A stretch of DNA of 48,792 nt, filler included, from Dimargaris cristalligena (taxonomy: Eukaryota), in the NCBI GenBank assembly GCA_003614675.1. It is 2 parts of 2 records of this genome, joined end to end, with 100 filler letters (N's around TTAATTAATTAA, not from the genome) between each part and the next. Parts side by side here need not be neighbours in the genome. Positions count along the whole stretch, not along the records: positions 24,459 to 48,792 come from ML002591.1; 1 more part is not named here. One strand, given 5' to 3'. This document shows, in pieces, positions 10,567-44,049 of the stretch; the first letter of the stretch is position 1; every line of letters begins with the position of its first letter. Below the pieces are notes generated by a model. That model searched no databases. It was not told the origin of the DNA and worked only from the letters and a program-made list of their open reading frames with translations. Position numbers and translations under genes: made by a program.

Positions 10567-11257
10567 GAGCAGGACTAGGAGGGGTAAACAAGACGAAAGC
10601 TAAGCTGAAGGGATAAAACGGCGCAGTACGGAGAAGAAAAGGGAGGCGGGCAGTTGGCTTAAAGTAGAGGTGGGCAATGGGTCCATCCTTGTCCTGTTAT
10701 GCGACACTTTCGCTAACGAACCCTAAAGAGCGAGTGAGAGAGAGCTGCCTTGGGCATACAAAGACGGTTGATGACTGATCTTTGTGAGGGGTCTGCAGCA
10801 GTGTGCTCGAAGCTCCGGTAATCCTAGCTTACTAAATGGGACAAGGTAAAAGAGCCCCAGGGCGGTGGGACATTAAATTTCCTGGTGAACAGCGGGGCTT
10901 AAATTTAACCTTGGCTATTCACTTTAATGATTCAGGCCGCTTCCCTTTCAATTGGACCAGCTGAAAAAAAATAAAAGAATAACAAAAACTAACGCCCAGT
11001 GCCTGACCTGGCTTGTTTATGAATATAATCTCTCCCTGCTCTCCTCAGCCTCCGAATCCAACCGCCATTCCTTCGACAGCCATCCCAAACTATATACCTT
11101 GTCTTGATTGTATTATCGCTTTCCGAGCAGTTCCCTTTACTTATATTTCCTTCGTCCGTATCTAGGCCAACCTCGTCTGTATATTAAAGAGGGGGAGTTC
11201 CTAAGCCTCACCTCACCGCACCCCACTCCGCACAAACTCCCTCTGGGCTTCCATACC

Positions 11258-14200
11258 ATGCTGGGTGAATCCTCTGCTCTTTTCCCTGAGGAAGCCACGG
11301 CCGCGGTTCCATCGTCACCCGCCCTGTTCCTAGATTCCTCCGGACCAGGTGACTACAATTCACCGCTGGCCACCACCTGTCCGCCCGATATGCTGATGGC
11401 CGATACCACTATATGCATACCCTCCGCTGCCAAAGCCCCCGCAGCACCTGAGTTCCCCCCGACCGACCCCAACGAGCCCGGGATTTTCGTTTCCGAAAAC
11501 TGCCCCTCCCCAACGAAGCCAGCCGGGACCTACTCCGATACTCTCATTGCCTCCCTTTCCGAAGAAGGCAGCCCCCCCGCCGACATGACTACCCCGACCA
11601 CTGTTAGCGGCGATATACCCTCGGCCCCAGAAATGGACCTGAGTCTGAACCTGAACCCGAGTCTGGACCTAGCCCAGGCCAAGGCAAAGGCCGACCGTCG
11701 GAAAACCTGTGACATTCGCATTCCGGAGGAGTGGGCCATGCAGTTCGATGAGCCCTCCGAAACAACCCTAGGCGGAGCCCATTTGGCTCGCTCTCCTTCC
11801 GCGCCGGAACCCGTCGAGGCGGCCCACCTGCCCAAGCCAAACCCGAACCCGGAATCCGAAGACCGGGCGATGGACCTGGGGAGTAGCACCGAGCCCAGCC
11901 CGCTGCTGGAGGACCAGGCCGATTCCGACGTATCCGTGGACGAGGGGGAAATTAGGCCGTTTAATCGTCGGAAATCCCAAGTCCGGTTTTCCCTGGCCCC
12001 CGCCACCGTGCATACATTCGGGGCCGAGACTGATGAGTCGGACCATGGCCATGGTGACGATGAAATCGACGGCAACCGCCAGACCAGTGTCCCTGGTCTT
12101 ATCGAGCATTCTACTTTCAATGAAACCGCAAACGGACATGCCAACCACGAGGTAAAGCAGTCGCCGCATGACCGCACCCCAACACCTGACCTGCTCGACC
12201 TATCTGCCACCCCACCGCCGAACTCACCACCCGCTCCCGCCCCCGCTACCACTGTTACCGACATGGTCAGTATCGCTCCACCGGTTTCGAGGGAGGATCA
12301 GCCGCCCATGGACAACCCCTCCTCCCCTATTAATACAATGATGGATGCGGACCCCACCTCCCCAGTGAATACCACCCCCGCTCCTGTTCCTGCTTCCGCT
12401 CCAGCCCCTGCCCCGGCGTCCCCTCCCTCCCCTTCCCTCCTCATACCCATCACGCCTCGTACCATACAAACCGCCATTTCCATCCCTCTACCCGAATCGC
12501 CCACCCCTCTACCCAAGGGCGAAGACGTATCCCCGGCCGGCTCCAACAAGTCCGTCAACGAGCGCGACCACTCCGAGGACGACGACCACGTTACCGAGGA
12601 CCTGCTCTACAAAACCCCCCGGAAACAGGCTCGCACCGCCTACGTGCTCAGCCCCACCTTTTCCAACGCTCTTCTCCACGCCACGCCTGAAGAACAGGCC
12701 GCCATCCATGATACCCTGTTGGGTTCAGCTAAGCGCATCGAGGCCCAGTCTACCCATTTGATACCCTACTCCACGGCCCATCCGCTATCCCACACTGCTG
12801 ACCACCCCGGTTCCGAAGCAACGTCGGCCGACTCCCAGTATGAGGAAACCCCCCTCATCTTATTCCAAACCCCGGCCCCGGCTAGAATCCGCGCCAATTT
12901 CGTTCGCCAGTTGCCCAACGACACTCTAATCTCCACTATTCTAAGCCAGGACAACAACATGGACGCCGACCCCTCCACTACCAGCAATGGAGGAGATGCC
13001 GCAATTCAAGCAGTAGCCACCCATCCGAATAATTTCTCTGACCTCTTGGCCCGTACGCCGGCCTCCAGTCGCGAGGTTGTCAGCTCACGTCCGTCCGGTC
13101 GCAGCGCCAATGCCAATGCCAATAAGTACTATCCACCCTCGTGGCTTATCCCCGTTACGCCGGCCCCGACCCTGCTGGACACTGTACGCAATGACTTTGT
13201 TTCGCCCGATAAGATCCCTAAATACAGCTACATCGAAATGGAGGAAATCAAACGCCAGTTTGGTATCAAGGTAGGCACATTGGTTGAATTGGTATATACA
13301 TAGCATTGCACAGAAAATGGGGGACCTCGAATACGGACAGGCCCACTCTTTGAGAACTTCATCCAACGCGTATATATATCCCCCCCTCCTAAAGCAACTC
13401 CTCGTTTGTAAAAACCCCGGTTATCCAATCTCCGCATCTATCGCTGCTACACTGTTGTCCAAAACCACTAGGTCCGGGTAAAAGAAGAAGCCCATCAGAA
13501 AGCCTTAGACGAAGTCAAGCAGCAGCTAGAGCACGAGCGAAGGGAAAAGTCGGAAATCAACGATGTGCTAAACGAGTACGCAGAAACCATGTCTAATTTT
13601 GTGGGTAAGTTCCTCGCTAACCGACCCGCATTACTCGCACTAGTTTTACTAATCTCCTAATACAATCCCAGCCCAAACCAGGGAGGAGGAGGGCAGTTGT
13701 TATTTCCATCTTGTACTATCCCTGGCGAGTTGGCCAAACCAATTTGTACTTATCCGATTTCCTGCCACTTCTTTTATCAAATGTATGTCTATTAGAAACA
13801 TCCCAAGCGGCTGAAAAGGAGTACAATGAGAATATGCTCCGAATGGAGTCGCAAAAGGACGTTCTCAAGGACACCATAGAGGGGATGCAGCAGACCCAGA
13901 ACCAGATGGCCCAACGGTATGAAGAACTGCAGGCCGAATCCAACAAGCAAACTCAGGTAAGGGCATGCCTTCATTATATTTATCATATCCTCCCTTTTGC
14001 TCCAAAAATGTTCTGCTTTACTCCAACTCTCAGCGCTCTCAGAAATCTCGAAAATCATGGGCTCTTGAATCTTATACATCGCAACACCCCCATCGCTAAC
14101 AATCTTTAACTTTGTTTTTCTTTTGTAACCATGTATATATATATATATATTCCAACCTGCGATATTTACCCTATTCACAGGCCAATGGCAACCTACTAAC

Positions 14201-14474
14201 GGAGATTGAAAGCCTCAAAGGGGGTCTGGCCATCGCCGAAAATAACTTTGAAGCCCTGAAGAAGCACGCCGAGGCCAAAATCGAGGAAGCCAACGCGGAA
14301 ATTGTCAAGGTTCGGTCGAGCTACGATAAGGATATATCAATTCTCCGACTCCAACTCACCAAGTCCGAGTCCAAGATAAAGACTCTAGAGGCGAACCTCG
14401 CGACCAAAACACAGGAGAATGCAGACCTAATGGGAATATGTGATGAGTTACTTGTAAAAATCGGCGACCAGTAG
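11258..14474 (+). CDS. TACC: TACC-domain (transforming acidic coiled-coil / Alp7-like) spindle protein, 4 exons, ~866 aa
   Basis: Exons 11258-13270, 13472-13604, 13796-13956, 14181-14474 (GT-AG, phases consistent). C-terminus FEALKKHAEAKIEEANAEIVKVRS...KTQENADLMGICDELLVKI is the TACC_C signature. Long acidic, Pro/Ser-rich disordered N-terminus with many S/T-P sites. Confidence 0.9.
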
Positions 14475-21714: not shown

Positions 21715-23287
21715 CCTTAGCAATTTTGCCTACCGCACAGGTTAGATTCAACGATTTAGTTTCGGAACATCGCCCCACCTACCTCTTCCTGGACCATCCC
21801 ACGACTTAACGATACATTTGTCTGACCGCATGCTTATTCCCCTCCCCCGGATAAAAAACCAAGGCTAGCCCCTCAATCAGTATTTCTTCGGATTTCATTT
21901 TGACGCCGTCACCAGTACCAGCCCGGTGCATTATATTGTCGGGTCGGCGGTAACATAACCACACCTCGATCTATATCCTGGAACCTCTTGACCCTGACAA
22001 TTGTCGTACTGATATTGATATATATCTATCTTTAACACCACCACCTGTTCTTTTATTTTACAATTACATTGCATGGTCCTTTTTTTTTCAATAAATCAAC
22101 ATTGCGATAGTATTTTGACTGGGAAAGTTGGCACTAGCTTATAAGGTCTTGTGGGCATAGCCCACGATGGCATCTTGATTTTATAATAAGATATCGACCA
22201 TAATTAAAATTTCGGGTGATAAATGGATATTGTTACAAATATGCATTACTAATTTGGGGGTCTCTTTTTGGTCAGTTCCGGGTGGGGATGGATTAAGGTA
22301 TTACAGTATATCAAATCTCACACATTTCTACTCGTGAGCGGTTGAGTCAATAGCTATAGCCCAGTTACATTCATAACACTCCATAATGTATCTCTAAGGA
22401 TATGTATACGCTTATATTCTGTCTTCGCTATTATTATCCCCCTGTCTGGTTTACTGCTGTGCATATGCCTCGTTCAACGATGCATTTTTTTACCATCGAC
22501 CCCATTTTCACCATACCTAAGCCCTCACTCTCCCATATATTTATAGAACAAAAATGGGTAAATATACATTGGAAACCCCTTCTTTAACAGTGCCTCTTGA
22601 CTGATTGTAAAGGCCTGGATCACACATATGAGTCCGTAAACGTGTCGGACCAAGAACCTAGACAAAGGCGCCATATTAGATTTCGGCTATGTGAAATTTA
22701 TTTGATTCAGGCGAAAAACGGAATGTTCACATAGTGGGTATTTTACTGGACCACCAACCAACTTCCACTATTACCTCAACTTTTTACTACATTGAATAGC
22801 CTGTACAACCGAGCCAATCTGCCCAAGGCATTTCGCCAACCGTCTCGTATTGTACAATTAAAGGTGTGTGACTTTATGAGTAATTATATCGAGGAATAAT
22901 ACAACACTAACCCATGAGCCAGTTGAAAACTGTCGATGAGTTGAATATACATATCTATTTGTGAATTCTGGCCCAGTGTAATATAATTTTGAGTCTCGTC
23001 GTATTGACAAACTTAGTAGAATTCCATCAAAACCGGGGAAAATAGTACGATAGATGAACCTATGTCTAGAGATGAACGACATGAGCATTTTTTACTGTAT
23101 CCTATTGTGTAGTTAATAAAATAAAATCTAGAAAATGACTATACATAACCTCATCGATCACAGGAAAGACCTAATCAAATAATAGGTCGATGAAATGGAC
23201 TAATTATCTAAACACTCGGGAAAGAGAACTTAAGTGATACGTAGAACGAGTTTTTATAAACTACCCAGTCCAGTAAAAATTAAAAAA

Positions 23288-23405
23288 AGTTGTAGCACCA
23301 ACTATTCCCAAGTGGTCACCCACCTCAGTACTAAATTGGCTGATAAGAACTTAACTTCGCAGATCTAACGGGATACGGTGCTAACTCTTACATATGGCCA
23401 CAACT
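23288..23405 (-). rRNA. 5S rRNA gene (solitary copy)
   Basis: - strand reads AGTTGTGGCCATA...CACCGTATCCCGTTAGATCTGCGAAGTTAAG...TTTAGTACTGAGGTGGGTGACCACTTGGGAATAGTTGGTGCTACAACT, followed by an oligo-T Pol III terminator. About 118 nt; terminal and internal helices pair. Confidence 0.93.
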
Positions 23406-24609: not shown

Positions 24610-26414
24610 TCCATGAAACCGTTGGTCTGATCGATGGTGGCACCTCGACTAAGATGACCGTCAATTACAATCTGGTAAGTATAGCAAATTCACCGAATTA
24701 GGCTAGGCGCCTCCTTCCAACAGCTCTCCAGAGCCATTCCATACTTCACTTGATCCCCGCATATTCCTCCAATACCCACTAACTCTTATTCCCCATCTAC
24801 AACTAAATACTCACACTTTATTACCATTGGATGAATGTCCATTAGTTTGGCGGTACATTGATCAAACTGGGTACTGAACGTCACCGTCACCTTATCCCCG
24901 AAGTGGATAGCCTGGAATCAACGGGCTGTTTTGGCTTAACCGAATTGGGCTACGGCAATAACGCCATTGAGATGGAGACCACCGCCACTTACGACCAGGC
25001 CACCCAAGAATTCATTATCCACAGTCCATCGACCAAAAGCCAGAAGTTCTGGATCACCAATGGTGCCATCCACGCCAAGTACTGCATCGTCTTTGCCCAG
25101 ACCCTTGTCGCTGGCAAGAACGAAGGCATCCACGCCTTCCTGGTCCCCATCCGGGACCGTGATCTGCGGGTATGTCCCGGGGTCACCATCCGTGACATGG
25201 GTCGTAAGCAGGACCTGGACGGGGTTGACAACGCCCTCCTGGCCTTCAACCACGTGCGTATACCCCGGGTCAATCTCCTCAACCGCCATTCCGAGGTCCA
25301 CCCGGACGGCAGTTTCACCTCAACCATTGAAGGTCGCCGCAACCGTTTCATTCGAGTGGCCGACCAACTGCTCAGTGGTCGTATTTGCATTGCTTCCATG
25401 ACCATGGCCTCTGCCAAGGGTGGCCTCACCGTAGCCCTGCGCTACGCGGCTACTCGCCAGACCGTCGGCCCTGCGGGTAAATCGAATGCGCCCATCCTGA
25501 GCTACCAGCTCCAGCAGCGGGCCTTGATCCCACTGTTGACCCGCTTGATTGCCCTCAACTTTGGCCTCAACCACACCAAGCGGGTCTGGATGAGCCCCGA
25601 ATCCGACCAGGCCGAGGTGGTGCGACTCTGCTGTGTCATCAAGCCTCTGATTACCTGGCATGTTGAGCGAGTGGGAACCATCTGCCGTGAGCGCTGTGGT
25701 GGTCAGGGCTACCTGCGCTGCTCTCGCCTATCCTCCGTCATCGGGTTTGGACACGCGGGTATCACTGCTGAAGGAGACAACTCCGTGCTGATGCAGAAGG
25801 TCGCCAAAGAACTGCTCAACGACGTTCAGCGCGGCAACTATAAACTTACACCGCCCGCCAATCGCAGTACCCCGCCCAGCGGTTGGAGCCTGGACAGCCT
25901 GGACAGCATGGTCGACTACAATCGCCTGCGTCTGATCGATCTGGTCCAAGAGTTGGGCAATAACCTGCGTACCAAAATGGCCGCTGGCCAGACCCTGTTT
26001 GACGTCTGGATGTACGAGGAATCTGATACCATTCAGGCCCTGTCCAAGACCTTCGGGGAACTAATCTCTTTGGAGCAAATGGTCAAGGCCGTTCGTAGCC
26101 CATCCCTCAGCGAGCCCACTCGGAAAGTCCTCCAGGATATTTGTTACCTGTATGCCCTTACTTTGATTGAGACCGACCTGGCTTGGTATACCTACCAGAG
26201 CTACATCACTCCCGCCAACGCCCGGACGGTGAGCCCCCGCGTTCGTCAGGGAGTTGCCCAACTGGCCCCGCAGGCCCTGCATATCGTGGAGGCGTTTGAT
26301 ATCCCTGATGAACTACTCGCGGCCCCCATCGCCCTGGACTGGGAGCGATTCAACGAGTATGACAACCAGGGCGAAATTGTAGTGACTGCTGAAAGCCTCC
26401 CGGCGAAGCTGTAG
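24610..26414 (+). CDS. ACOX: Peroxisomal acyl-CoA oxidase, exons 2-3 (24610-24674, 24846-26414)
   Basis: [34 protein letters not shown]; motifs [50 protein letters not shown]-terminal PTS1 AKL. Confidence 0.95.
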
Positions 26415-30173: not shown

Positions 30174-31432
30174 TGTGAGAATTAAGTGGGTGGCAGAGGA
30201 AAGATGAGGGTTAAGGAGAATAATAAAAAAGCAAGCTTGAGTATGGTCTAGGCTAGGCCAATCTAGTAAAAGACTAACAAAAGGGTAATGGGACGACGGC
30301 AAAAGTTAAGGTGAACCGTAATAGTGTTTTAACAACAATGGGTTTGTGGAGCTAGCTCCTTCACTGTCTCCACTTGCGCCGCCTTGGAAGAAACCTATTA
30401 GCCGGACTGGGAAGAACACCAACGTGGGAGGGGGGCGGTATTACAGCTACTGATTTCAGGGTCTAATTAACCACATTGCTATTACTCCCAGCGAAGAGGC
30501 GGTTTCATGTAGGGATGATGGGTCAAGATATATTTTCATATTAATCTCCCCCCAGTACACTAAACAAGCTAAAGTAACCTTACTACCCTTATTATTTACA
30601 TGAAAAAGACACCAGCATAGGGAGTTTTTCTGGGAACATTAACTCATATACACGGGCTAGCTCATATTTTGTTCAATGGTCATTATCATACGTCGGATAG
30701 TTGGTGATTGTACTTATTATATTTTTAGCATACCTCCAAAGAGAAGTAAGGCATAAGAAATATATATTCGTATTAGAGAAGGTTTAACCTAGTTGTATAA
30801 CTAAAGGTCGCTTGAACAGGTAGGGCTGTAATGTAGCAAAATGTACGCTCTATCCTCGTCCCCAGCTTATTTACATTCAAGTTTGAGTGTGACAGTCAAG
30901 TAGCTCTCATAAATATGGTATTAAGGTAAATAAAATAGTTCAAACCCATGAGTCCATTACACCACCACGGCATTGAATTTCCTATATATGCCTTTATCCG
31001 TTCTAGATAAACTTTATTGATATAAATAAATCCTCATAATGTCCGGAAGTGTGTATATCGGTGAGGGAAAGGTCTAGGACCACAAGGCTTCGTCCCAATG
31101 GGGCACATAGCTTCCCCGTGGGGTCGGGTGGGCAGAAGGGAAAAAATTAGGCATACTAGAAAAACTCCTGTCGGGTTTGGGTCTCTAGTGTTGTGGTTGC
31201 GGGCTATCATGTTGGGTTGTCGATGATGTGGTGGCTTGTGTTTGTGGGGGGCGGGGCATAAGCGGTGGTGGTATCGGTGATTGGGGAGTCATCATAGATG
31301 TTCGCCATTCTCTTAGGGCGAGGCCTGTGGGTCGGGTTCCGGTTTGGGGGTGGCGGTGGGGTGCGCGAGCCAGACCATCTATACTATCCAGCTAAGATGC
31401 AAACCACCAAATCAAAAAATTGAAAAAATAAA

Positions 31433-31505
31433 GGGCTCGACCGGGATTCGAACCCGGGCCACGTGCACCCAAAGCACGTATGTTAAACCTCTACACTATC
31501 GAGCC
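31433..31505 (-). tRNA. tRNA-Pro (anticodon TGG), intronless
   Basis: GGCTCGA acceptor stem pairs with TCGAGCC; anticodon arm CGTGC-TTTGGGT-GCACG; T-arm CCGGG-TTCGAAT-CCCGG; downstream T-rich terminator. Confidence 0.95.
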
Positions 31506-33646
31506 ACCAATAAAATAATCAGTTTTTGGTAATCTATTTTCTAAAGATATTTTACTGGGATTCTAGTGGAACTCGCTAGAACACTCAAGATACACTGAGC
31601 CGGTAAGAATTTCGGTTTGTAGTGCAAATGGGAAGTCCTGAATTGATTACCCTTAATCCACTTGGGCTAAAGTTTAATTCTAAAAACAAATTGGGGTAGA
31701 TATATGGATCAACCGAAACCCTTCCAAAAACGTGATATTCACTTAAGTGTCCTGGAAATCCACAATTCGCTTTACAACTATTTATAAACAACCGTGGGGA
31801 GGGCTGTATTTAACTGATTCTTAATCTTCCCATCGGACGGGCGTACCTAGTCATATATTGATTGGTATCATTGGAACCCATGCTAATATATGATATTATT
31901 ATATTAAGCTGTTGCGATATTTAGCCAATATGAATATATCTAAACGAGTTCATTATTTTAACCAGCCGTTTCGGACAATCTTTTTCGTAGCTGTTGGCCA
32001 ACTCTGGCCTTTAACCCTCGCATTTTCAAAAAAATATGGACACCATACGTTTTGTTCGATTATCAAGAGCTCTGTAGTTCGCGGGCACGTCTTGTTTAGA
32101 GATTTTTCTGGCAAAGCGATTACATGTATTAGCTACGTTTTATCGAAGCTACTCCCCTGGCCAGGATATCCCCGGCTCTATAGATGCAGGGTCTCAGATT
32201 AGCATCACTTGCCATATCTACCTGAAAAGTCTGGTGTGTCAATCTGTACGTCAGCGAAGTATAGGTTACTTAATTTTGAACAGCACCATCAACCAGCACT
32301 TGGAATAGCCTAAGGCAGTGTAATGTGGTCCACTTTCACGGTGGCATAGGTCTTATTGGCAGCTACTGGCTTGATTGTTTTTGGAAACATTCCTACTGTC
32401 TGTTCTGTTAACTTTACACCCAAATCATTATTGTTATAGCGTGCAAGATATATATACTCAGCTATGCGTATATATCCGGTGCTGTTCCAGGCTGATAATG
32501 ATGTCAGGGTAATTGTCGGTAGATAATAAGTATATAAATATTAGAAAATAGTTCCTGACAGATTAATGTCGAGGAAGTGTGGTTTATGCATGGTATATTG
32601 CATTTGCATCATCCAATTTACTTGGACTGGAGTGCAGAATTTCCATGAGTACGTAGGTGCATTGGTTATGCTATGGCACGGGCCCTATATATATAAAACT
32701 AGTTTCTGACTCATTCTATTAAATCTCAGGGAACATACTCTTAACAGTTAACTCTGTCTCCTGGCTAAACCACAGTAGTTAAAACGTTTGTCTACTTTTA
32801 GTGTTGCTCCAGAATCTAACCAAACACCTGTTGTGGCGGATGGGTGTCAGATTACCCGACTGCTTACGGGAAGTGGCTTTGGTGGCCCGCTGGACGCCTT
32901 GCCGGTCAACCCGGATACAGCAAATGGGGCCATATCAACAGGGTGGTGGATTTGTAAACGACCCAAGCGCATCTACAGTGCCAGATGGCGGTCTCAGGCT
33001 AAGGCCGGGAATCGCATCGACTGGGTTGGTGCTTCCTAGCACTTTGGGACATTGCTTACATTGGGCATTTCAGGCCAACTTGCCACCCGGGGTTGATTAA
33101 CAGCTACGCCCTGCTCAGTTGAACGCTTAGCCAAACGGAATGGTTTCAAGCGGAATGTCGAGGGGCGGGACTCCGCCAGTGATTGCAGGGTCCCTGGTGT
33201 TTATCACACTGCCCACCCTCCCCTTTGATGAATAGGGAGGGTCGGGAATGCTCTCGACCATTATGTGATAAAGAAACGCCCATGTCCGGTTTTTGGCTAG
33301 TGGTGTTGAAGGGTTAGGGTGCCGCTGAATGGTTAGCCTATGGTGGAGTATTGATCGGGCTTTCATCTCAAAGACCCACTCTCTCTCTCTCTCTCTCGCA
33401 CTTGCTTTTTATTCGATGAATATTGGCAAAGGTATACTATACACTAGTCATCGGCCGGGATATTCTAGGAAGCGGGTCAATTATCGCGATTTACTCCATG
33501 CGAACCAACAGACCACCAACTCTAAGCAATAACACGGGATTGTTGGAGAGGGAGGGCCCATCCTTTCCTTTGTTTGTGGGAGAGCGCAACGAGTAGTGAG
33601 GATGTTCGCTCGCTGGTCAAAGGATTTTAGCCTGGTCCATAAATTA

Positions 33647-33665
33647 CCAATCACTGTCTGCCACC
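33647..33665 (+). promoter_or_regulatory. ERSE-like element 1 (CCAAT-N9-CCACC) upstream of BiP
   Basis: CCAAT cactgtctg CCACC; ERSE consensus is CCAAT-N9-CCACG. Confidence 0.55.
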
Positions 33666-33733
33666 CACATCCCCACGGATGGAAAGAGGGACTACAGTGG
33701 AAATGGGAGTGCTAAGCAAGTAAGGGTGCAGGA

Positions 33734-33752
33734 TGTGGTTGCCTGTCATTGG
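33734..33752 (-). promoter_or_regulatory. ERSE-like element 2 (CCAAT-N9-CCACA) upstream of BiP
   Basis: - strand reads CCAAT gacaggcaa CCACA; exact 9-nt spacing. Confidence 0.6.
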
Positions 33753-33899
33753 CTAATAATTAATTATCAGCGAGATAAGTAGGAGGTACCCGCGCTAATA
33801 AGCGAGTGACAGCGGAACCCCTTTTCCTTATGGGTAGGTTAGGTTGCGGAGCCCTAACGAGGGTGTTGCCTTCGCTGTAATGATCGGACGGGGCGCTGG

Positions 33900-33906
33900 T
33901 ATAAAA
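33900..33906 (+). promoter_or_regulatory. TATA box of the BiP gene
   Basis: TATAAAA ~175 bp upstream of the ATG at 34078, followed by a pyrimidine-rich leader. Confidence 0.6.
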
Positions 33907-34077
33907 CTACCGTCCAGGGCCGTTTCCCTGAGGTTGCATCGTTCGTGTTTTCCTGTACTTTATCCGCATAACATTCCTTTCCCAGTACATATCTATCTAC
34001 ATATCCGGCCCAGTTAAGCCCTTTGCTTTACATCTCCTTCGTTTTATACTTCCCCCCTCATCTACTTTTTACCCAAT

Positions 34078-36397
34078 ATGCGGTTCGGCTCCTACTTCAC
34101 CAAGGCCACCATGGCCCTCACCATCTTCGGTCTGACCTCCTTGGTCATGGCCGATAAGCCCGCTAATGACAAAGAAGCCTACGGTACCGGTAAGTATTCC
34201 CCCCTTCCCTAGCCCATCTACCCAAGGCTGCTTCTCATCTGCGCATCTAGCCTGCCCACGTACCGCCGCCGCGCTTTTGGCGGGATGGAAACCCTCCTGG
34301 GTGTTGGCGTTCTCTTCTTAGACTGTGGACGATTTGTCCTGCTTCTTGAAAAAGAGATGGGTCCCTCCGCTGGCTGCCCACTCATCCGCTGCTTAAAGCT
34401 GAGAGTACCTTCCCTCTTCCTCGCCTCCACCCGTGTCCAGTTACTAATCCGGCCCCCCTGTTTATCACCACTATGATTTTCTCTGGATAATCCCTCTCCA
34501 ATCAGTCATCGGTATCGATCTGGGTACCACCTACTCTTGCGTGGGTGTCCACAAGGGTGGACAGGTCGAAATTATTGCCAATGACCAAGGTAACCGCATC
34601 ATGCCCTCGTATGTCAGTTTCACCGACTCTGAGCGTTTGATTGGTGAGGCCGCCAAGAATTTGATCGCCTCCAACCCCAAGAACACCGTTTTCGACGCCA
34701 AGCGTCTGATCGGTCACCGCTTCAAGGACCCCGAAGTCCAAGCCGACATGAAGCACTGGCCCTTTGACGTGATCAACAAGGATGGCAAGCCCGTCGTTCA
34801 GGTGGAGGTCAAGGGCGAAAAGAAGCAATTCACCCCCGAGGAAATCTCCGCCATGGTGCTCGGTAAGATGAGGGATACCGCCGAGGCCTACCTGGGTGTG
34901 AAGGTCACCCACGCCGTGGTCACCGTGCCTGCCTACTTCAACGACGCCCAGCGTCAGGCCACCAAGGATGCTGGTACCATTGCCGGTCTTAATGTGCTCC
35001 GTATCATCAATGAGCCCACCGCCGCTGCCATTGCCTACGGTCTGGACAAGAAGGGTGGTGAACGTCACATTCTCGTTTTCGATCTGGGTGGTGGTACCTT
35101 CGATGTGTCCCTCCTCTCCATCGACGATGGTGTGTTCGAGGTTCTGGCCACTGCTGGTGACACCCATCTGGGTGGTGAAGATTTCGATAACCGTCTCATC
35201 AAGTACTTCAGCAAGATCTGGAACAAGAAGACTGGTAAGAAGGTCGGTGAGAACCTCAAGTCCCTCGGTAAGTTGAAGCGCGAGGTTGAAAAGGCCAAGC
35301 GTACTCTGTCCTCGGCCGACTCCGTCCGTGTCGAAATCGAATCCTTCCAGGACGGTGAGGACTTCTCCGAGACCCTAACCCGGGCCAAGTTCGAGGACAT
35401 CAACAACGATCTCTTCCGCAAGACCCTGCAGCCCGTCAAGCAGGTCATCAAGGACTCCGGTCTCAAGAAGGAGGAAGTCAACGACATTGTGCTGGTCGGT
35501 GGTTCCACTCGTATCCCCAAGGTCGTCGAGCTTATCGAATCCTTCTTCGGTAAGAAGGCCTCCAAGGGCATCAACCCCGACGAAGCCGTCGCCTACGGTG
35601 CCGCCGTCCAGGGTGGTATCCTGACTGGTGAAGAGAACACCCAGGGCCTGCTTCTGCTCGACGTCAACCCCCTGACCCTCGGTATTGAAACCACCGGTGG
35701 TGTGATGGCCAAGCTGATCAAGCGTAACTCCGTGGTCCCCACCAAGAAGTCCCAGATCTTCTCCACTGCTGCCGACAACCAGCCCATCGTCCTCATCCAG
35801 GTCTACGAAGGTGAACGTGCCATGACCAAGGACAACAACATGCTTGGCAAGTTCGAACTGACCAGCATCCCCCCCGCTCCCCGTGGTGTCCCCCAGATTG
35901 AAGTGACCTTCGAAATCGACGTTGACGGTATCCTGAAGGTGTCCGCCGCCGATAAGGGAACCGGCAAGTCTGAGTCCATCACCATCACCAACAACAAGGG
36001 CCGTCTGTCCGAGGAAGATATCGAGCGCATGGTCCAGGAGGCCGAGCAGTACGCCGATGAGGACCGTCTGTTCAAGGAGCGCATCGAGGCCCAGAACGGT
36101 TTCGAAGCCTACATCTACTCCATCAAGAACCAGGTCACCGACAAGGACGGTCTGGGTGGTAAGATCGAGGAAGAGGAGAAGAAGACCATCCTGGACGCCA
36201 TCAAGGAGAAGACCGAATGGCTCGCCGACAACGTCGCCACCGCCACCAAGGACGATATTGACGAACAGAAGAGCGAGCTGGAGGCTATTGTCAGCCCCAT
36301 CGTCAGCAAGCTCTACGGCGAAAGCGGTGCCGGTGCTGGCCCCGCTGCCGATGACGACGAGGAGGACTTCGGTGCCCGCGACCACGACGAACTTTAA
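34078..36397 (+). CDS. KAR2: ER Hsp70 chaperone BiP/Kar2 (exons 34078-34189, 34506-36397; ~667 aa)
   Basis: Exon 1 encodes signal peptide [25 protein letters not shown]; spliced sequence [16 protein letters not shown]; Hsp70 motifs TVPAYFND and [11 protein letters not shown]-terminal HDEL; strong C-ending codon bias. Confidence 0.98.
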
Positions 36398-37247: not shown

Positions 37248-40013
37248 CTAAGCTGTCGAATTCCACATTTTCCGCCAAACTAACCGAGCGCCCAGAACGC
37301 GTACGGTCCCCATCAATACAATCACAAACCAGACTCCGATCATAACGAGTAAGAGAGGAATTTCACCCTGAAGCATACGAATGTACTTATCGATTAGCTT
37401 CCCGATTAGTCCCCCCGTGTAGCCGCCACTAACGTCGGCCCGGCGGAGATCCGCATCCGTATAGGGACGGTAGTGCTGAAGGGTATTGCCCAAGATGGCC
37501 ATCAATTGCCCTGCCTGAGTATTCCTAGGGGGTTCCGACGGTGTTGTGGTAGTGGTGGTGGCTTTGGCTGTGGCTGCGGTGGTTGGGCGGGCAAACCAGG
37601 CCTCGATTCCCGTGGGTGATGTCGGCCGGTGAGTTATACGGTAGAGCAGGCCCTTCACCTCAGTCGTGGAAGTTGCGGCCTCCATAATGCCCTCCATGAC
37701 CTGCGAAATCGCATCAATTTGGGTGATGGTGGTGGTGGTATCATCGTCGCGGCGTGAGAGGCTGACTGGGGTTGGTGTATTCGGGAACTCGTGGAGCGTT
37801 GTTGAAGAAGGTACCCGCTGAGCCGAATTAGTCGGAGTGGGCATGGACAGGGAATTGTCTGGCCCAGTGGGTTGGACTGCCTCCTCCCCTAAATTAATGG
37901 AGATAGCATTGTGGAAGTATTGGTCATCCGGCAGGGCCCCGTCCCGCCGGTAGAGCCCCTCGGGAACGTACACTGTGGCTGGCTGACGGGCCTCCCAGAC
38001 CGAAGCCACGGCGCTGGCGGGGGTTTTGTTCAGGTAGGCCTCAACGGCCAGTGCCCCCAGTCGGTTGGTGTCCTTCTCCGACAGGTAGGTCGAGTTCGCC
38101 AGGAGGCCGTGCACGTCTTGCATGGTCCCGACGTACTGGCCCACCAAAGCATCCACAAAGTCCTCCATGGTACGGTTCAACGGCTCCACACCGACTACCA
38201 ATGCATTAGGGTCCACCCGCGGTAGGGTAACGTTGGCGGCATCGTTGATATACGTAAAGAGTTTCCCGATGGCCTGAATTTTCTTGATGAAAGCGCAATT
38301 GACAAAGTCCATAGCGGCCGACTCAAAGGGCGTGTTGTTGAAAATATCACCCACCACGGTGCGCGTATCGTTGATGATAATATCGAGTGAGCTATTGAGG
38401 GCCCCGGTGCCTTTCTTAATGGGCCCAAAAATATCCTCATTGACGGTGAATTCCATGGCTGCCAGTTGTCGGTTAATTCCACCGGCAAAGTCGTTAGACA
38501 CCCGAGTCAAATCCTGGGTCATATTGCCCACGACATGGGACCTGAACGTGTTGAGCGAGTGGGCGGCCTCGGGGGTATACTTTTCACGAAGTTGGTTGAT
38601 ACTTCTAATTTGGTTGGCGATAACCAGTAAACCCAGGATGCCGGAGGCTAGGCAGGCCAAACTGGGAATGTGGTATACGTACTGCATCCACCAACGGACT
38701 AAATGGGCCTTTTCAACGTTACTATACCGCTTATGAACGCGTTCATTTAAACTGTAGAGCCAGGGTTGAGCGATACCCGTATGGATATCCTGCATTTGGA
38801 TTTCGTGAACGCTCTGCCCTGGTCCACCAGGCGGCGGTGGGTGAAGCGGGTGGCGACTGCGAATGAAGGTCATGAGTTGCTGGTGTTCCCGACGAATCCG
38901 GGCCATGTTAAGTAAGATGAGGGCGACGGCAATACCCACCAGTACGCCCACCCCAATCAGGAAGATCATTCGGGTCGCTTGGGCCAGGCCATCCACTAGC
39001 GCCGCACCGGTTTGGGGATCGCAGAAGTTGGCCTGGGCGGCCTCCGGTACCCCAACTAGACTGGCGTTCACCTTGATACGACTGAAGCCGCTCCGTATAG
39101 TGGATTTGAGATTTTCGAATGGTTTGCGAAGCAGGTCGATCAGCTGGGCTTCAACATCCGCCAGTTTGGGGACTTTCTTCGTGGCCTCGTCCAGGTCCGT
39201 ATTCATTTGGTCGGGAATCTGGACCGTCCAACTGGAAGTATCGGGGTAGCTGATACTCGGGATGGTACGGGAATTACCGGAAACGAGGTCAAATAACGAA
39301 TTGCTGCCATCGACAATTTTATTGGCCCAGCCGACGACGTCGGTCACCTGGGACTGGATACCCTTAATAGTAGAATTCATGGCGGTATTGAAGGAAGATT
39401 GGAGATCGGCCATCCCCGCCTTGAACAAACTCAGCCCCCCCTGGATCACCAGATCCGCAACGCACAACTGGAAGGCCCGAAAAGCGGAAATAAGAAAAAC
39501 GATAATCTCCTCCAGGAGAGTGACGGCCAGCACGAGGCCATCGGCGGTTCGGTTGACGACCGCCAGGGCCGCCTTATTGACAATTTCATTCGTTTCCTCG
39601 GCGGCCTTTTGCGGGAGACTGAGCAGCGTGTTGCCTACCCGTTCCACCGATTGGCAACTGCGGAGGAAGTCGTCTTTAGTGTCCTGGCCGAACCGGTCGA
39701 CCTCCACGCTGTGGAGGTACAGGCGGACCGCGTAAAAGAGAATTATAATGATAAGGTAGGTGGCCCAGGCCCGGCTAAGTTTGGCATTCAGGCCCAAATA
39801 GGGCGAGAAAATGGTGCCGGTCGGCCCCGCTTGGCTTTTCTCGGGCGGGTGGTCTAGGTACATGAAATTGGGGGAGCCGTTGCCCAGGTTGATACTCATC
39901 ACCCTGTTGGGGTCGCTTAAATCGATGAAGTTGGATTCTCGAGAGGATAAGGACACGGGCTGAAACTGACGGCCTATCCGACGTTGGTAGGGAGGGGTAG
40001 ATTCGGTGGCCAT
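37248..40013 (-). CDS. PRM1: Plasma-membrane fusion protein Prm1 (921 aa, intronless)
   Basis: SPYLGLNAKLSRAWATYLIIIIL matches the Prm1 PYLGLxARLSxxW motif; conserved Cys (SCQSVE, LCVADL, NFCD, VNCAFIKKI); multiple TM segments; HIPSLACLASGILG. Confidence 0.9.
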   Translation of the reverse strand: MATESTPPYQRRIGRQFQPVSLSSRESNFIDLSDPNRVMSINLGNGSPNFMYLDHPPEKSQAGPTGTIFSPYLGLNAKLSRAWATYLIIIILFYAVRLYLHSVEVDRFGQDTKDDFLRSCQSVERVGNTLLSLPQKAAEETNEIVNKAALAVVNRTADGLVLAVTLLEEIIVFLISAFRAFQLCVADLVIQGGLSLFKAGMADLQSSFNTAMNSTIKGIQSQVTDVVGWANKIVDGSNSLFDLVSGNSRTIPSISYPDTSSWTVQIPDQMNTDLDEATKKVPKLADVEAQLIDLLRKPFENLKSTIRSGFSRIKVNASLVGVPEAAQANFCDPQTGAALVDGLAQATRMIFLIGVGVLVGIAVALILLNMARIRREHQQLMTFIRSRHPLHPPPPGGPGQSVHEIQMQDIHTGIAQPWLYSLNERVHKRYSNVEKAHLVRWWMQYVYHIPSLACLASGILGLLVIANQIRSINQLREKYTPEAAHSLNTFRSHVVGNMTQDLTRVSNDFAGGINRQLAAMEFTVNEDIFGPIKKGTGALNSSLDIIINDTRTVVGDIFNNTPFESAAMDFVNCAFIKKIQAIGKLFTYINDAANVTLPRVDPNALVVGVEPLNRTMEDFVDALVGQYVGTMQDVHGLLANSTYLSEKDTNRLGALAVEAYLNKTPASAVASVWEARQPATVYVPEGLYRRDGALPDDQYFHNAISINLGEEAVQPTGPDNSLSMPTPTNSAQRVPSSTTLHEFPNTPTPVSLSRRDDDTTTTITQIDAISQVMEGIMEAATSTTEVKGLLYRITHRPTSPTGIEAWFARPTTAATAKATTTTTTPSEPPRNTQAGQLMAILGNTLQHYRPYTDADLRRADVSGGYTGGLIGKLIDKYIRMLQGEIPLLLVMIGVWFVIVLMGTVRVLGARLVWRKMWNSTA

Positions 40014-42096
40014 TTCGTAAAAGGTATATACAGGTTGGTACTGCCTTACAGATAGTATTGTGGATTGGAAAAAAATTACTGGATATTTTTAAGTGCGTTT
40101 AGAAGGGAAGAGTAGTACGTTCAACGTCAGAGCTTCAATAATTTTACTAAAAGAATGATCAGGTTCAATAGCATACAGACTATGAAACAAGTATGGCTAC
40201 AAAATAGATTGAATATATACAACGATGGCAAAACAAACTTAGGTATGGTAATTTTAAACCTAATTGACGCTATTCCAGGTTAGGGGAGAATATAACATAT
40301 AAATGGCAAATAAAAGGAGGAGCAGCTAATTTGACTATGAGAGGAGGGGAGTGGAGGGCGTACTTGAAGAAAAGGGGCCCACTCATCACTATATATATAT
40401 ATAAATATATCGACTAGTAATGAAGGTGGTGTAAAGGGACTACCGGAAACGAGAATGGCTCTGTGTGATGGACAACCCATCCTTCAGTGACGGCTGCTCC
40501 ATGGCAGTAGCTAAAGTAAGGCAATAGGGGAAGCGCCTCCAGCTCATTTACAAAGACCATTACATCTCGTCTGATTATAGGTCCAGTGTGAAACGAACCA
40601 GCAGGCAAGCCCACATAAACAGACAAAGCACTAGTCCCGAACTGCTTATATATAATACCTATTTTATTTCGGTTTTTATATATATATATTTTACTTATTA
40701 GCCCAAGAAGAGATCTATTCTTTGGCAATTTTTATAAAGGGGACAATCATGATGACTGTAGCAGCTGCCCAAATAGAGCGAGTATCTCAATCGAATGTGG
40801 CATTGAATATTAGGCCACTGTCGGACAATATAAAGAGACGGATGGTCAGTTGGGTAAAGATAATCACTCTGTACAATGAAGGGAGGGGGTTGGGTATGCA
40901 AGCCTTGCCGGAGATGTGGCGGACGAGGTGGTTTCCAAGTCCATCGAATATCGCCATCGACCGTAGAGCCGCTTTACTATTTTTAGACACTGCGGGAAGA
41001 GGCAATTTGAACTAAATAGCACAAGACATTGTACATGGGTTAGCGACCAGTATCCGTTTTTCAGTTAATTCAAAGCGGACTTTCAAGTAGGAAGGCCGTC
41101 CTCCATCAACCGGATTAGGGATTTACCCGACCTTCTCAATTTAATAGCAGTCGAACTACTGGCTCTTGCAGCTATATTCACATGGTACCCTATTATTCAA
41201 GTTCAATAGCTGATGTCTGGTGACCTCAGTTGTTCAGAGCGGGCGCTGGCTTATACATGTAAAGTTGCTAGATTCGCATACTCTCTATTATAAAATGGGG
41301 GTACAGTGCAAATACACATGCCGAGTTAGTGGACGTATCCGTTTGAAGATTTCGGGATCCAGGTTGGATTGGCCTTAGGCAACCGCGGCCAGAACAAGGC
41401 GAAATCGATCGTCTTAGCGTTGACGTCGCCCTAAAGGTGCATTGGTGATTCTTTACTTCCCGTAGATCATAATTCGATGGTGATACTCGCAAGTTAGCCA
41501 TTGGTATATGCAAGCTTCCTTGAAAAAATAGACTTTGGTGCACAAGAAAAAACATTTTTCGAGAATTTACCCATCGGCCTCTTATCTATTACGCATACCT
41601 TTTACTGCGCTGTTTACCCACATCCTAGAGCTATTTTAGTGGATATCTGAAAGCAAACACATATAACTGCCTACGACTGAGAGGAAGATAATAGGCATTT
41701 ACTTCTTAGAGGGCGGGTATCGGTGGAAAACACGAGAGCTTAGAGCTGGGCTCCGCTCGTCAGCCTTTTAAAACCAGCCTGATGTGACTAATCTTAGGGA
41801 GGGAAGGCTTTCGTATTGACTTGATGCAAAATAGATTAGTTGGGGATACCTATTCCCAATAATCCGTACTAGTTTAATGATTGACTTCGTTCTCTTTAAT
41901 CATCCTCGACCCTGCTGAAACTGCTTCGCCTCTGCATTGCTATAGCGGAGTTTGGCAGTGATGCCATCAGGCTTGTGTAGCCGGGAGGGTTGGTATAAAG
42001 AGCACTCGCGCGAAGTAGCCGTGGAAAGTGACCGACTCCCTTCTCACCCGATACCCATTATATTCACCCTGAACACCCTCAGTCATTTTGTTCGCC

Positions 42097-44049
42097 ATGT
42101 ATCTCACAATGACCTTTCACTTTGTGCTATTTGCCCTATTCTATGCGATTGTCAGTCACCTGGCCTTCTGTAGCAGTTTTGAACCCATTACGCCATTTAG
42201 TCCGATTTTACCTTCGACATTTTCCCTGGTTCCTGCCGAAGTTGGTCATTTAACCCCCGTAGCTGCCACCAGCAGAGACGACCCTCAATTGGCCACGGCC
42301 CTCTCCTATTTTGCCCAGTTTTTAAATATCACTGCCGAACAGGTGCAGCTTCAGGACCGCCAGGTAACGGCGGACACGGGAGTCCACCACCTACACTTCC
42401 AGCGAGTCCAAAGTGGGGTGTTATTGGCCAATGCTTTTATCAACGTAAACATTGGGCCCGGCCCCACGGTTCTTTCAGTGGGTCAAACTACGCTAGCCGA
42501 GCAAACGACCACTCTTAACCCCCCCGCCAGGTTCCAAGCGGACCCCCACTCCGCCCTCGACTACCTTGCCCCCTATTTGCCGCAGCACTGGGCCAATCTC
42601 TCCGCCATACCGCTCACGGTGCAGCCGAAAGGCGACAAAGTGAGTGGAAACGATGGCGGCCCAACATATATTTATGAATTACCCAATGGACCAATTGTGC
42701 GAGTAGGGGAGCGGTATCTGGCTCTGACGGTTAATCAACTGGTCAAAGTCTGGTGGGTCAATGTCCGTTTAGAGCCCCAGTGGCTAACCTTTTACTTCGC
42801 CCAGAGTTCGGGTGAGTTAGTAGCCGTGGCGGACTGGACCCGGGCCGCCTGCTACGACATTTTCCCCTGGCCTCTCGATAACCCCAACGAAGGGAACCGT
42901 CAGCTGGTGTGTGACCCTTGGCTACCTGCCACCTCCCCCAAGGGCTGGCAGCATCACTATAAATTCGCGGACTACCACACCACCGAAGGTAACAACGTGC
43001 ATGTTCAAATCCACGACACCAGCGTCAATTGGACCGTTTCCCGGCGCCCTGTTGCAAGCGTCAATGCGAATCAGGTCCAGTTCGCCTTCCCCTTAGATCT
43101 GTCCCAGCCACCGGTCCAGTACACCGACGCCGCCTTAACCAACCTGTTCTACCACTGCAACATGATGCACGACCTGCTCTACGTGTACGGTTTTACAGAA
43201 GTCGCAGGCAATTTCCAGGACGATAATTTCGGCCGCGGCGGCCGCGAAGAGGATTCCTTGGTGGCCTATGGGCAGGGCACCAGCTCAATTAACAACGCTT
43301 ACTTTAGCACGCCTCCCGACGGCTCTCACCCGTACATGTACATGTTCCTCTGGAATATGACCGGGCCCAATCGGGATGGGTGCCTGGACCGGTCAGTTGT
43401 TGCGCACGAATATACCCACGGTCTAACCGCTCGACTGACGGGTGGGCCCATCAATGTCTACTGTTTATTATTTGGAGAGGCGGCGGGATTAAGCGAAGGC
43501 TGGAGTGACTGGGTGGCTACGGTATTGCAGGTTCGGCCTTACCCATCCTCCTCCACCGCTGTGTTCATCCCTACCCATCTGGACCAAGTGGTCGTTGTTG
43601 GCGCATATGTAACTGGCAAGCCCACCAAAGGTATCCGAACCCACCCCTACACTACCAACATGGCCACCAATCCAACCACCTATGCATGGCTCAACCGAGC
43701 CAATTACAAGGAAATCCATAGTATGGGCGAGGTTTGGACCCAGATGCTGTACGAGGTGTTCTGGAATTTCGTGGGTCAGCACGGGTTCAATACGAACTGG
43801 TTTAGCGGGGATCCATCGGCCGGCAACACCCTGGCCCTGCAATTGGTCATTGACGCCCTGAAATTACAGCCCTGCTTCCCGGAATTCATCTCGGCCCGTG
43901 ATGCCATACTGCAGGCTGAGAAGCAACGGACCATGGGCACCAATCGCTGTCTGATTTGGAAAGGGTTTGCTAAACGTGGGCTTGGCGAAGGGGCTAAACG
44001 GGAGAATGATACCTACATTGAGAGCTTCCACTTACCCCAGGACTGTTGA
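42097..44049 (+). CDS. Secreted M36 fungalysin metalloprotease
   Basis: Signal peptide; FTP-type propeptide (DTGVHHLHFQRVQSGVLLANAFINVNI); TTEGNNV; YGFTEVAGNFQDDNFGRGG; zinc motif HEYTH; EGWSD; HSMGEVW; LKLQPCFPEFISARDAI. Start is ATG 42097 or 42109. Confidence 0.95.
   Translation: MYLTMTFHFVLFALFYAIVSHLAFCSSFEPITPFSPILPSTFSLVPAEVGHLTPVAATSRDDPQLATALSYFAQFLNITAEQVQLQDRQVTADTGVHHLHFQRVQSGVLLANAFINVNIGPGPTVLSVGQTTLAEQTTTLNPPARFQADPHSALDYLAPYLPQHWANLSAIPLTVQPKGDKVSGNDGGPTYIYELPNGPIVRVGERYLALTVNQLVKVWWVNVRLEPQWLTFYFAQSSGELVAVADWTRAACYDIFPWPLDNPNEGNRQLVCDPWLPATSPKGWQHHYKFADYHTTEGNNVHVQIHDTSVNWTVSRRPVASVNANQVQFAFPLDLSQPPVQYTDAALTNLFYHCNMMHDLLYVYGFTEVAGNFQDDNFGRGGREEDSLVAYGQGTSSINNAYFSTPPDGSHPYMYMFLWNMTGPNRDGCLDRSVVAHEYTHGLTARLTGGPINVYCLLFGEAAGLSEGWSDWVATVLQVRPYPSSSTAVFIPTHLDQVVVVGAYVTGKPTKGIRTHPYTTNMATNPTTYAWLNRANYKEIHSMGEVWTQMLYEVFWNFVGQHGFNTNWFSGDPSAGNTLALQLVIDALKLQPCFPEFISARDAILQAEKQRTMGTNRCLIWKGFAKRGLGEGAKRENDTYIESFHLPQDC

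Follow-up and report, generated by a model that had tools for sequence, protein, structure and literature searches.

A proposed paired CCAAT-box module with ERSE-like geometry upstream of the BiP gene of the fungus Dimargaris cristalligena

The BiP gene of Dimargaris cristalligena, a fungus of the Dimargaritales, is preceded by two CCAAT boxes of opposite orientation, one on either arm of an inverted repeat that is imperfect, and each box is followed, after exactly nine nucleotides, by CCAC. The fungal CCAAT-binding complex (CBC, Hap2/3/5) is the homologue of NF-Y, and the explanation that we tentatively favour, with a confidence that stops a little short of even, is that the motif pair is a dyad of CCAAT boxes that serves BiP as an upstream module and whose resemblance to an ERSE is one of geometry. 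At present, the ERSE spacing in the dyad is best regarded, judging from the sequence, as a geometric resemblance rather than a demonstrated ER-stress input, and the two sites are named “ERSE-like” instead of ERSE because the defining CCACG is lacking.

All positions refer to the window, namely the whole stretch of 48,792 nucleotides that was analysed. The initial annotation had assigned the promoter to BiP, and the gene product bears this out: it is an Hsp70 that ends in HDEL, as expected of this ER chaperone, it matches the Pfam HSP70 family with an E value of 4e-256, and its predicted N-terminus aligns with those of the BiPs of Tieghemiomyces, Dimargaris, and Dispira, all of which are Dimargaritales in the Kickxellomycotina. 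The nearest proteins come from Tieghemiomyces parasiticus (91%), Dimargaris verticillata (86%), and Dispira (81–82%). BiP is the sole ER chaperone gene found in the 48.8-kb window, and its first intron, of 316 nt, is long by fungal standards. The features used in the following paragraphs are:

33072–33082 and 34103–34113 (the latter within exon 1): matches to the A. niger-type UPRE
33639–33672, + strand: left arm of the inverted repeat, 34 nt, imperfect, 24 of 34 positions complementary to the right arm
33647–33665, + strand: ERSE-like site 1, CCAAT-N9-CCAC(C), CCAATCACTGTCTGCCAC(C), with CCAATCA as its CCAAT box
33665–33672, + strand: shared 8-mer CCACATCC, copy 1, 13 nt after the CCAAT of site 1
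33673–33677, + strand: the one CCACG within 1.28 kb before the BiP ATG, 21 nt after the CCAAT of site 1
33731–33764, − strand: right arm of the inverted repeat, 34 nt, 24 of 34 positions complementary to the left arm
33731–33738, − strand: shared 8-mer CCACATCC, copy 2, 9 nt after the CCAAT of site 2
33734–33752, − strand: ERSE-like site 2, CCAAT-N9-CCAC(A), CCAATGACAGGCAACCAC(A), with CCAATGA as its CCAAT box
33900–33905, + strand: TATA box of BiP, TATAAA
34078, + strand: ATG of BiP
34078–34189, + strand: BiP exon 1, signal peptide
34190–34505, + strand: BiP intron 1, 316 nt, GTAAGT...CAG
34256–34262, − strand: TACGTGG, candidate Hac1-type UPRE in BiP intron 1, the sole [TG]ACGTG[GT] core in 30300–34540
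34506–36397, + strand: BiP exon 2, with HDEL and the stop codon at its end

The initial annotation had reported CCAAT-N9-CCAC at 33647–33665 on the + strand and at 33734–33752 on the − strand, the two facing each other, and a check of the sequence located both motifs there. Its estimate that they stand 150–250 bp ahead of the BiP TATA box agrees with the measured distance, for the convergent sites lie 148–253 bp before TATAAA, and the spacer is exactly 9 nt in both. It had also remarked that neither copy has the final G of CCACG, which is indeed how the sites read, with CCACC in site 1 and CCACA in site 2. Site 1 belongs to a CCAC-rich run, in which CCAC recurs at N9, N13, and N21 from the CCAAT box.

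The arms of the inverted repeat are separated by 58 nt, and the dyad as a whole stands approximately 150–260 bp upstream of the TATA box. Overall the arms are 71% alike and have in common AATTA and the 8-mer CCACATCC, of which there are five copies window-wide, including the two in the arms. Their complementarity of 24 out of 34 was reached by none of 300 shuffles, and a length-free segment score of 14, as obtained for the repeat, by two of 200; the dyad is thus non-random at about the 1% level, a modest statistic, and one that was looked at once the repeat had already been noticed. Aligned without gaps, the arms place their CCAAT boxes 4 nt out of register and so are not simple copies of each other. 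An origin from a transposon (MITE) was considered and set aside on the evidence of the window, which contains the 171-nt module just once; on this count the module is not an obvious repeat family either.

The CCAAT boxes themselves are of the kind bound by the CBC. The in vivo CBC consensus from ChIP-seq in Aspergillus is CCAATVR (PMC7144946, in the part available), and both CCAATCA of site 1 and CCAATGA of site 2 match this Aspergillus-derived consensus. Five CCAAT boxes occur in 32800–34077, and the two that fit CCAATVR are exactly those of sites 1 and 2; window-wide, the fit is found for 65 of 169 CCAAT (38%). The same source, as far as its accessible text goes, describes a CBC footprint that extends about 13 nt downstream of CCAAT, at the border of which the bZIP HapX docks, and because the CBC recruits HapX, a fungal composite site of CBC plus bZIP is established biology (PMC7144946). 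At the CBC:HapX site, CSAAT-N12-RWT with a TKAN half-site, the CBC brings in a bZIP at a set distance, where its own footprint ends (PMC7144946), and by analogy this site may be taken as the nearest mechanistic precedent within fungi for the dyad; it differs in that HapX acts on iron genes and not on ER chaperones. A HapX-type site proper was also considered for the dyad and set aside: RWT is required 12 nt after CSAAT (criterion from the available part of PMC7144946), and the sequence there is CCC in site 1 and CAT in site 2.

Each arm is made up of an AT-rich AATTA, a CCAAT box that matches the CBC consensus, and a C-rich block closing in CCACATCC. Two CBC trimers would occupy the dyad in opposite orientation and constitute an upstream activating module, and the CBC-bound dyad would promote strong BiP transcription; a partner protein may in addition occupy the CCAC/CCACATCC block, where the CBC footprint would end. 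The binding of the CBC, the partner protein, and the effect on transcription are what we infer from the sequence; the position of the dyad relative to the TATA box and the ATG is that of a promoter element. If this is the right reading, a paired CCAAT-box upstream module is unremarkable.

How much weight the 9-nt spacing can bear depends on its frequency. In the window, CCAAT-N9-CCAC was observed four times versus 0.50 expected from shuffles, the remaining two matches, at 2951 (−) and 13119 (+), being inside long ORFs. The rate quoted in the initial annotation, approximately one per 262 kb per strand, was too low, as the N9 motif is several times commoner here. When the spacer of CCAAT-Nx-CCAC was varied from 0 to 25, each spacing gave 0–4 matches, with 42 over the 26 spacings and a mean of 1.6, and N9, with its four, tied with N0 and N24, so that enrichment of N9 above the other spacings was not found in the whole window. 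Within the promoter, defined as 33400–33900, 33078–34077, or 32078–34077, two N9 matches were obtained in 2 of 20,000 dinucleotide shuffles for each definition, and one match in 0.5%, 1.1%, and 2.5% of shuffles across the three. The earlier argument that two copies are unlikely by chance is thus upheld by the count but loses force in that the copies are non-independent: the value of 2/20,000 overstates the case because both copies are arms of one inverted repeat and may represent one event. Moreover, CCAC is found at N9 in arm 1 because of a tandem CCAC, this arm reading CCAC-CCACATCC. The support for a selected 9-nt spacing consequently comes closer to a single observation than to two, and this is without any correction for the many stress motifs and relaxations that a reader might have matched.

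The sites through which fungal Hac1-type factors act are also relevant. In the accessible parts of the respective papers, the yeast Hac1 sites are given as CAGNGTG and TACGTG (PMC3935401), the site bound by Cib1 of U. maydis as TGACGTGG (PMC6490947), and that bound by HacA of A. niger as CAN(G/A)NTGT/GCCT (PMC3472299). No Dikarya-type UPRE (CAGNGTG, TACGTG, TGACGTGG, or CANRNTGKCCT) was found between 33083 and the BiP ATG, and no CAGNGTG, TACGTG, or TGACGTGG core in 33212–34077. In 32800–34077, a search for ACGT, ERSE-II (ATTGG-N-CCAC), a perfect HSE, the XBP1-type TGACGTG, and CRE/GCN4 sites returned none, and neither an ACGT core nor CAGCGTG occurs in the 1.28 kb upstream of the ATG. Given the absence of an ACGT core, CAGCGTG, and a perfect HSE from these 1.28 kb, a conventional stress element does not compete with the dyad there. 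The Hac1/HacA/Cib1 UPREs of Dikarya represent the characterised mode of fungal BiP induction; the D. cristalligena gene is like those that use them in having one TACGTGG, in intron 1, and unlike them in having no ACGT core in the 1.28 kb before the ATG.

For comparison, JGI metagenome contigs were scanned for the peptide QG[N/H]RITPS[Y/W/F]V, which is specific to BiP, by means of a degenerate pattern; this yielded at least 117 loci, all encoding the peptide in a BiP-like context. Among the matches listed, 37 loci had at least 600 bp upstream (63,196 bp in total), and CCAAT-N9-CCAC was present in one of these 37, L068. This locus carries three tandem ERSEs on the same strand (CCACG, CCACC, CCACC), from −502 to −398 relative to the peptide motif, 66–150 bp before TATAAA and about 180–265 bp before the ATG. 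We take its sequence signature to be animal-type, and such a textbook triple serves as a natural positive control that validates the motif scan. It shows that natural ERSE clusters can include CCACC copies, in this case beside a full CCACG.

Loci were called Dikarya-like when their best tblastn match was to named fungal BiPs, which was the case for seven among the matches listed: L007, L027, L039, L050, and L060, with 76–93% identity to fungal BiPs over 490–743 residues, and the weaker calls L062 (76% over 267 residues) and L046 (83% over 70 residues). Two other loci, L017 and L079, with 77–79% over approximately 200 residues, were left out of the fungal count; they carry a signature that we assume to be animal-type, and CCAAT-N9-CCAC was found in neither. 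Among the matches listed, none of the seven Dikarya-like loci contains CCAAT-N9-CCAC, and no locus came from Dimargaritales or a recognisable early-diverging fungus. From −1000 to −150 relative to the peptide, Hac1-type cores occur, among the matches listed, in five of the seven Dikarya-like loci (12 in 5,950 bp) versus 10 of the 30 others (12 in 24,568 bp), and the same interval of the D. cristalligena BiP holds one, the TACGTGG of intron 1. The scan of viral contigs with BiP produced five giant-virus Hsp70 loci, which are irrelevant to the comparison.

Other readings of the dyad were weighed as well. The CCAAT pair may be functionless, a neutral leftover from a small duplication with inversion; the upstream region is long and poor in genes, and the ERSE likeness would be a coincidence that pattern matching picked out. 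We consider this somewhat unlikely. In its favour, both copies belong to one inverted repeat, and the tandem CCAC-CCAC of arm 1 automatically retains CCAC at N9. The coincidence is made easier by a motif pattern relaxed from 10 to 9 fixed bases, by N0 and N24 being as frequent as N9 in the window, and by a single match turning up in 0.5–2.5% of shuffles. A neutral relic does not readily account, however, for the extended CBC consensus being kept in both CCAAT boxes, for the 8-mer CCACATCC being identical between arms that are only 71% alike, or for the dyad module being single-copy in the window. [quoted passage not shown] We judge this to be unlikely, and it is compatible with the CCAAT-dyad explanation instead of excluding it. 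The intronic heptamer is the only [TG]ACGTG[GT] core across 30300–34540, TACGTG being the yeast UPRE-II (PMC3935401, in part) and GACGTGG the Cib1/XBP1 core (PMC6490947, in part). The frequency of Hac1-type cores in Dikarya-like BiP loci, five of seven versus 10 of 30 elsewhere among the matches listed, points the same way. Yet a lone 7-mer is weak evidence, as the 48.8-kb window has 13 cores of this class, which corresponds to about 0.2 expected per 850 bp, and an intron is an atypical location for a fungal UAS.

The remaining alternative is that the sites are genuine ERSEs. CBC/NF-Y bound to CCAAT would then bring in a bZIP activated by stress, which would occupy the CCAC half-site 9 nt farther on, and an early-diverging fungus would have kept an ancestral logic known from animals and plants. 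ERSE-I is CCAAT-N9-CCACG and is served by NF-Y with ATF6, and also XBP1, or in plants by NF-Y with bZIP28 and bZIP60, according to the available part of PMC3935401. With the mammalian ERSE-I the dyad shares CCAAT flanks of NF-Y/CBC type, the exact 9-nt spacer, and the CCAC that follows, and, with that of GRP78/BiP in particular, the presence of more than one copy in the proximal BiP promoter; it departs from the mammalian element in that its copies are without the final G, are mutually inverted, and lie farther from the TATA box (148–253 bp). With the plant element, used by a bZIP whose mRNA is spliced by Ire1, it has the bipartite geometry in common (PMC3935401, in part), whereas the specificity-bearing CACG/ACGT part is incomplete in the dyad (PMC5499772, in part). 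The exact spacer together with consensus CCAAT boxes in both copies, the two matches in just 2 of 20,000 shuffles, and the 1.28 kb upstream of the ATG that is devoid of an ACGT core, CAGCGTG, and a perfect HSE all speak for an ERSE. CCAC supplies one complete G-box-type bZIP half-site, and the animal-like L068, with CCACC in two of its three tandem ERSEs, provides a parallel for the reduced end. The ERSE is, in addition, common to mammals and plants, and the Ire1-dependent bZIPs XBP1 and bZIP60 use it as well (PMC3935401, in part). Nevertheless, CCACG is absent from both copies, and in tunicamycin-induced promoters of Arabidopsis the most enriched bipartite words are those with CACG, ACGT, and CGTG (RAR 6–13), words with CCAC reaching 4.7–5.8, and specificity is carried by the bZIP half and none by the CCAAT half, as reported in the accessible part of PMC5499772. 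Since both copies belong to a single repeat, they count as nearer one match than two, and one match is produced by 0.5–2.5% of shuffles, before the many other motifs open to matching are allowed for. The shared 8-mer follows CCAAT at N13 in arm 1 and at N9 in arm 2, and window-wide enrichment of N9 is absent. The motif also occurs in none of the seven Dikarya-like BiP loci among the matches listed, a conventional Hac1-type core, TACGTGG, is present in intron 1, and the characterised fungal Hac1 orthologues, such as Cib1, bind sites of the ACGTG type (PMC6490947, in part). The results obtained lean, on balance, mildly against the ERSE/UPR reading, and genuine ERSEs at these sites appear unlikely to us. 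The bZIP in question would be the orthologue of Hac1/XBP1, a membrane bZIP resembling ATF6 being the less likely candidate. To our knowledge, no ATF6 is known in fungi, and the part of the reading that involves an ATF6-like factor with S1P/S2P is pure conjecture. ATF6 is described as a metazoan arm in the portion of PMC10512342 that is available.

In its full form, the ERSE reading would hold that this early-diverging fungus, a member of the Dimargaritales, still drives BiP through an ERSE-type composite element, with CBC/NF-Y positioning an Ire1-dependent Hac1/XBP1-type bZIP on the CCAC at exactly 9 nt. The NF-Y-plus-bZIP logic common to animals and plants would then go back to the ancestor of opisthokonts, and Dikarya would have derived their stand-alone UPRE later; we regard this as improbable. 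If it were true, the NF-Y-plus-bZIP element would no longer be just a trait that animals and plants share but an ancestral eukaryotic UPR switch lost in Dikarya, and the dyad would give a first entry to the cis-regulation of the UPR in Zoopagomycota. As a hypothesis this is well formed and cheap to test, and its basis is a single promoter. A literature search, with most subscription journals outside its coverage, did not find an ERSE in any fungal promoter; the term occurs in the fungal paper PMC6490947 only within a reference title. UPR cis-elements of Zoopagomycota were not found either, and the papers that pair Zoopagomycota with the unfolded protein response deal, in their accessible parts, with other subjects.

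In another sample of this organism (run X5), the ERSE-like motifs are unchanged, and 3 of 1,578 promoter positions in 32500–34077 differ (32905, 34016, and 34021); at a divergence of about 0.2%, the unchanged motifs are uninformative. Besides the organism's own contig, this run contains several shorter ones that match window positions 34680–35110, in the BiP coding region, with, among the matches listed, 11–13 mismatches per 76–83 aligned letters; these presumably derive from other Hsp70 genes or from another organism in the culture.

Several further features of the window were recorded. No Pfam-recognisable ORF was found between approximately 30300 and BiP, and the nearest annotated feature upstream of BiP is a tRNA-Pro (TGG) gene at 31433–31505 (−), about 2.4 kb before the TATA box, which accounts for a cluster of ACGTG at 31460–31479. 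At 33380–33399, approximately 250 bp upstream of the CCAAT dyad, there is a (CT)n tract roughly 20 nt long. A 5S rRNA gene at 23287–23405 (−), full length and with an Rfam score of 103 bits, is located amid protein-coding genes, and the Rfam matches within the 48.8 kb include no further rRNA genes. Downstream, a 921-aa ORF at 37248–40013 (−) is convergent with BiP and has no Pfam match at E ≤0.001, and a fungalysin gene, encoding a secreted metalloprotease (Peptidase_M36, E 8e-140), lies at 42073–44046 (+). The window also contains an acyl-CoA oxidase ORF with ACOX domains at 24846–26411 (+) and, at 11108–14471 (+), a long ORF followed by an exon for a TACC_C coiled-coil domain.
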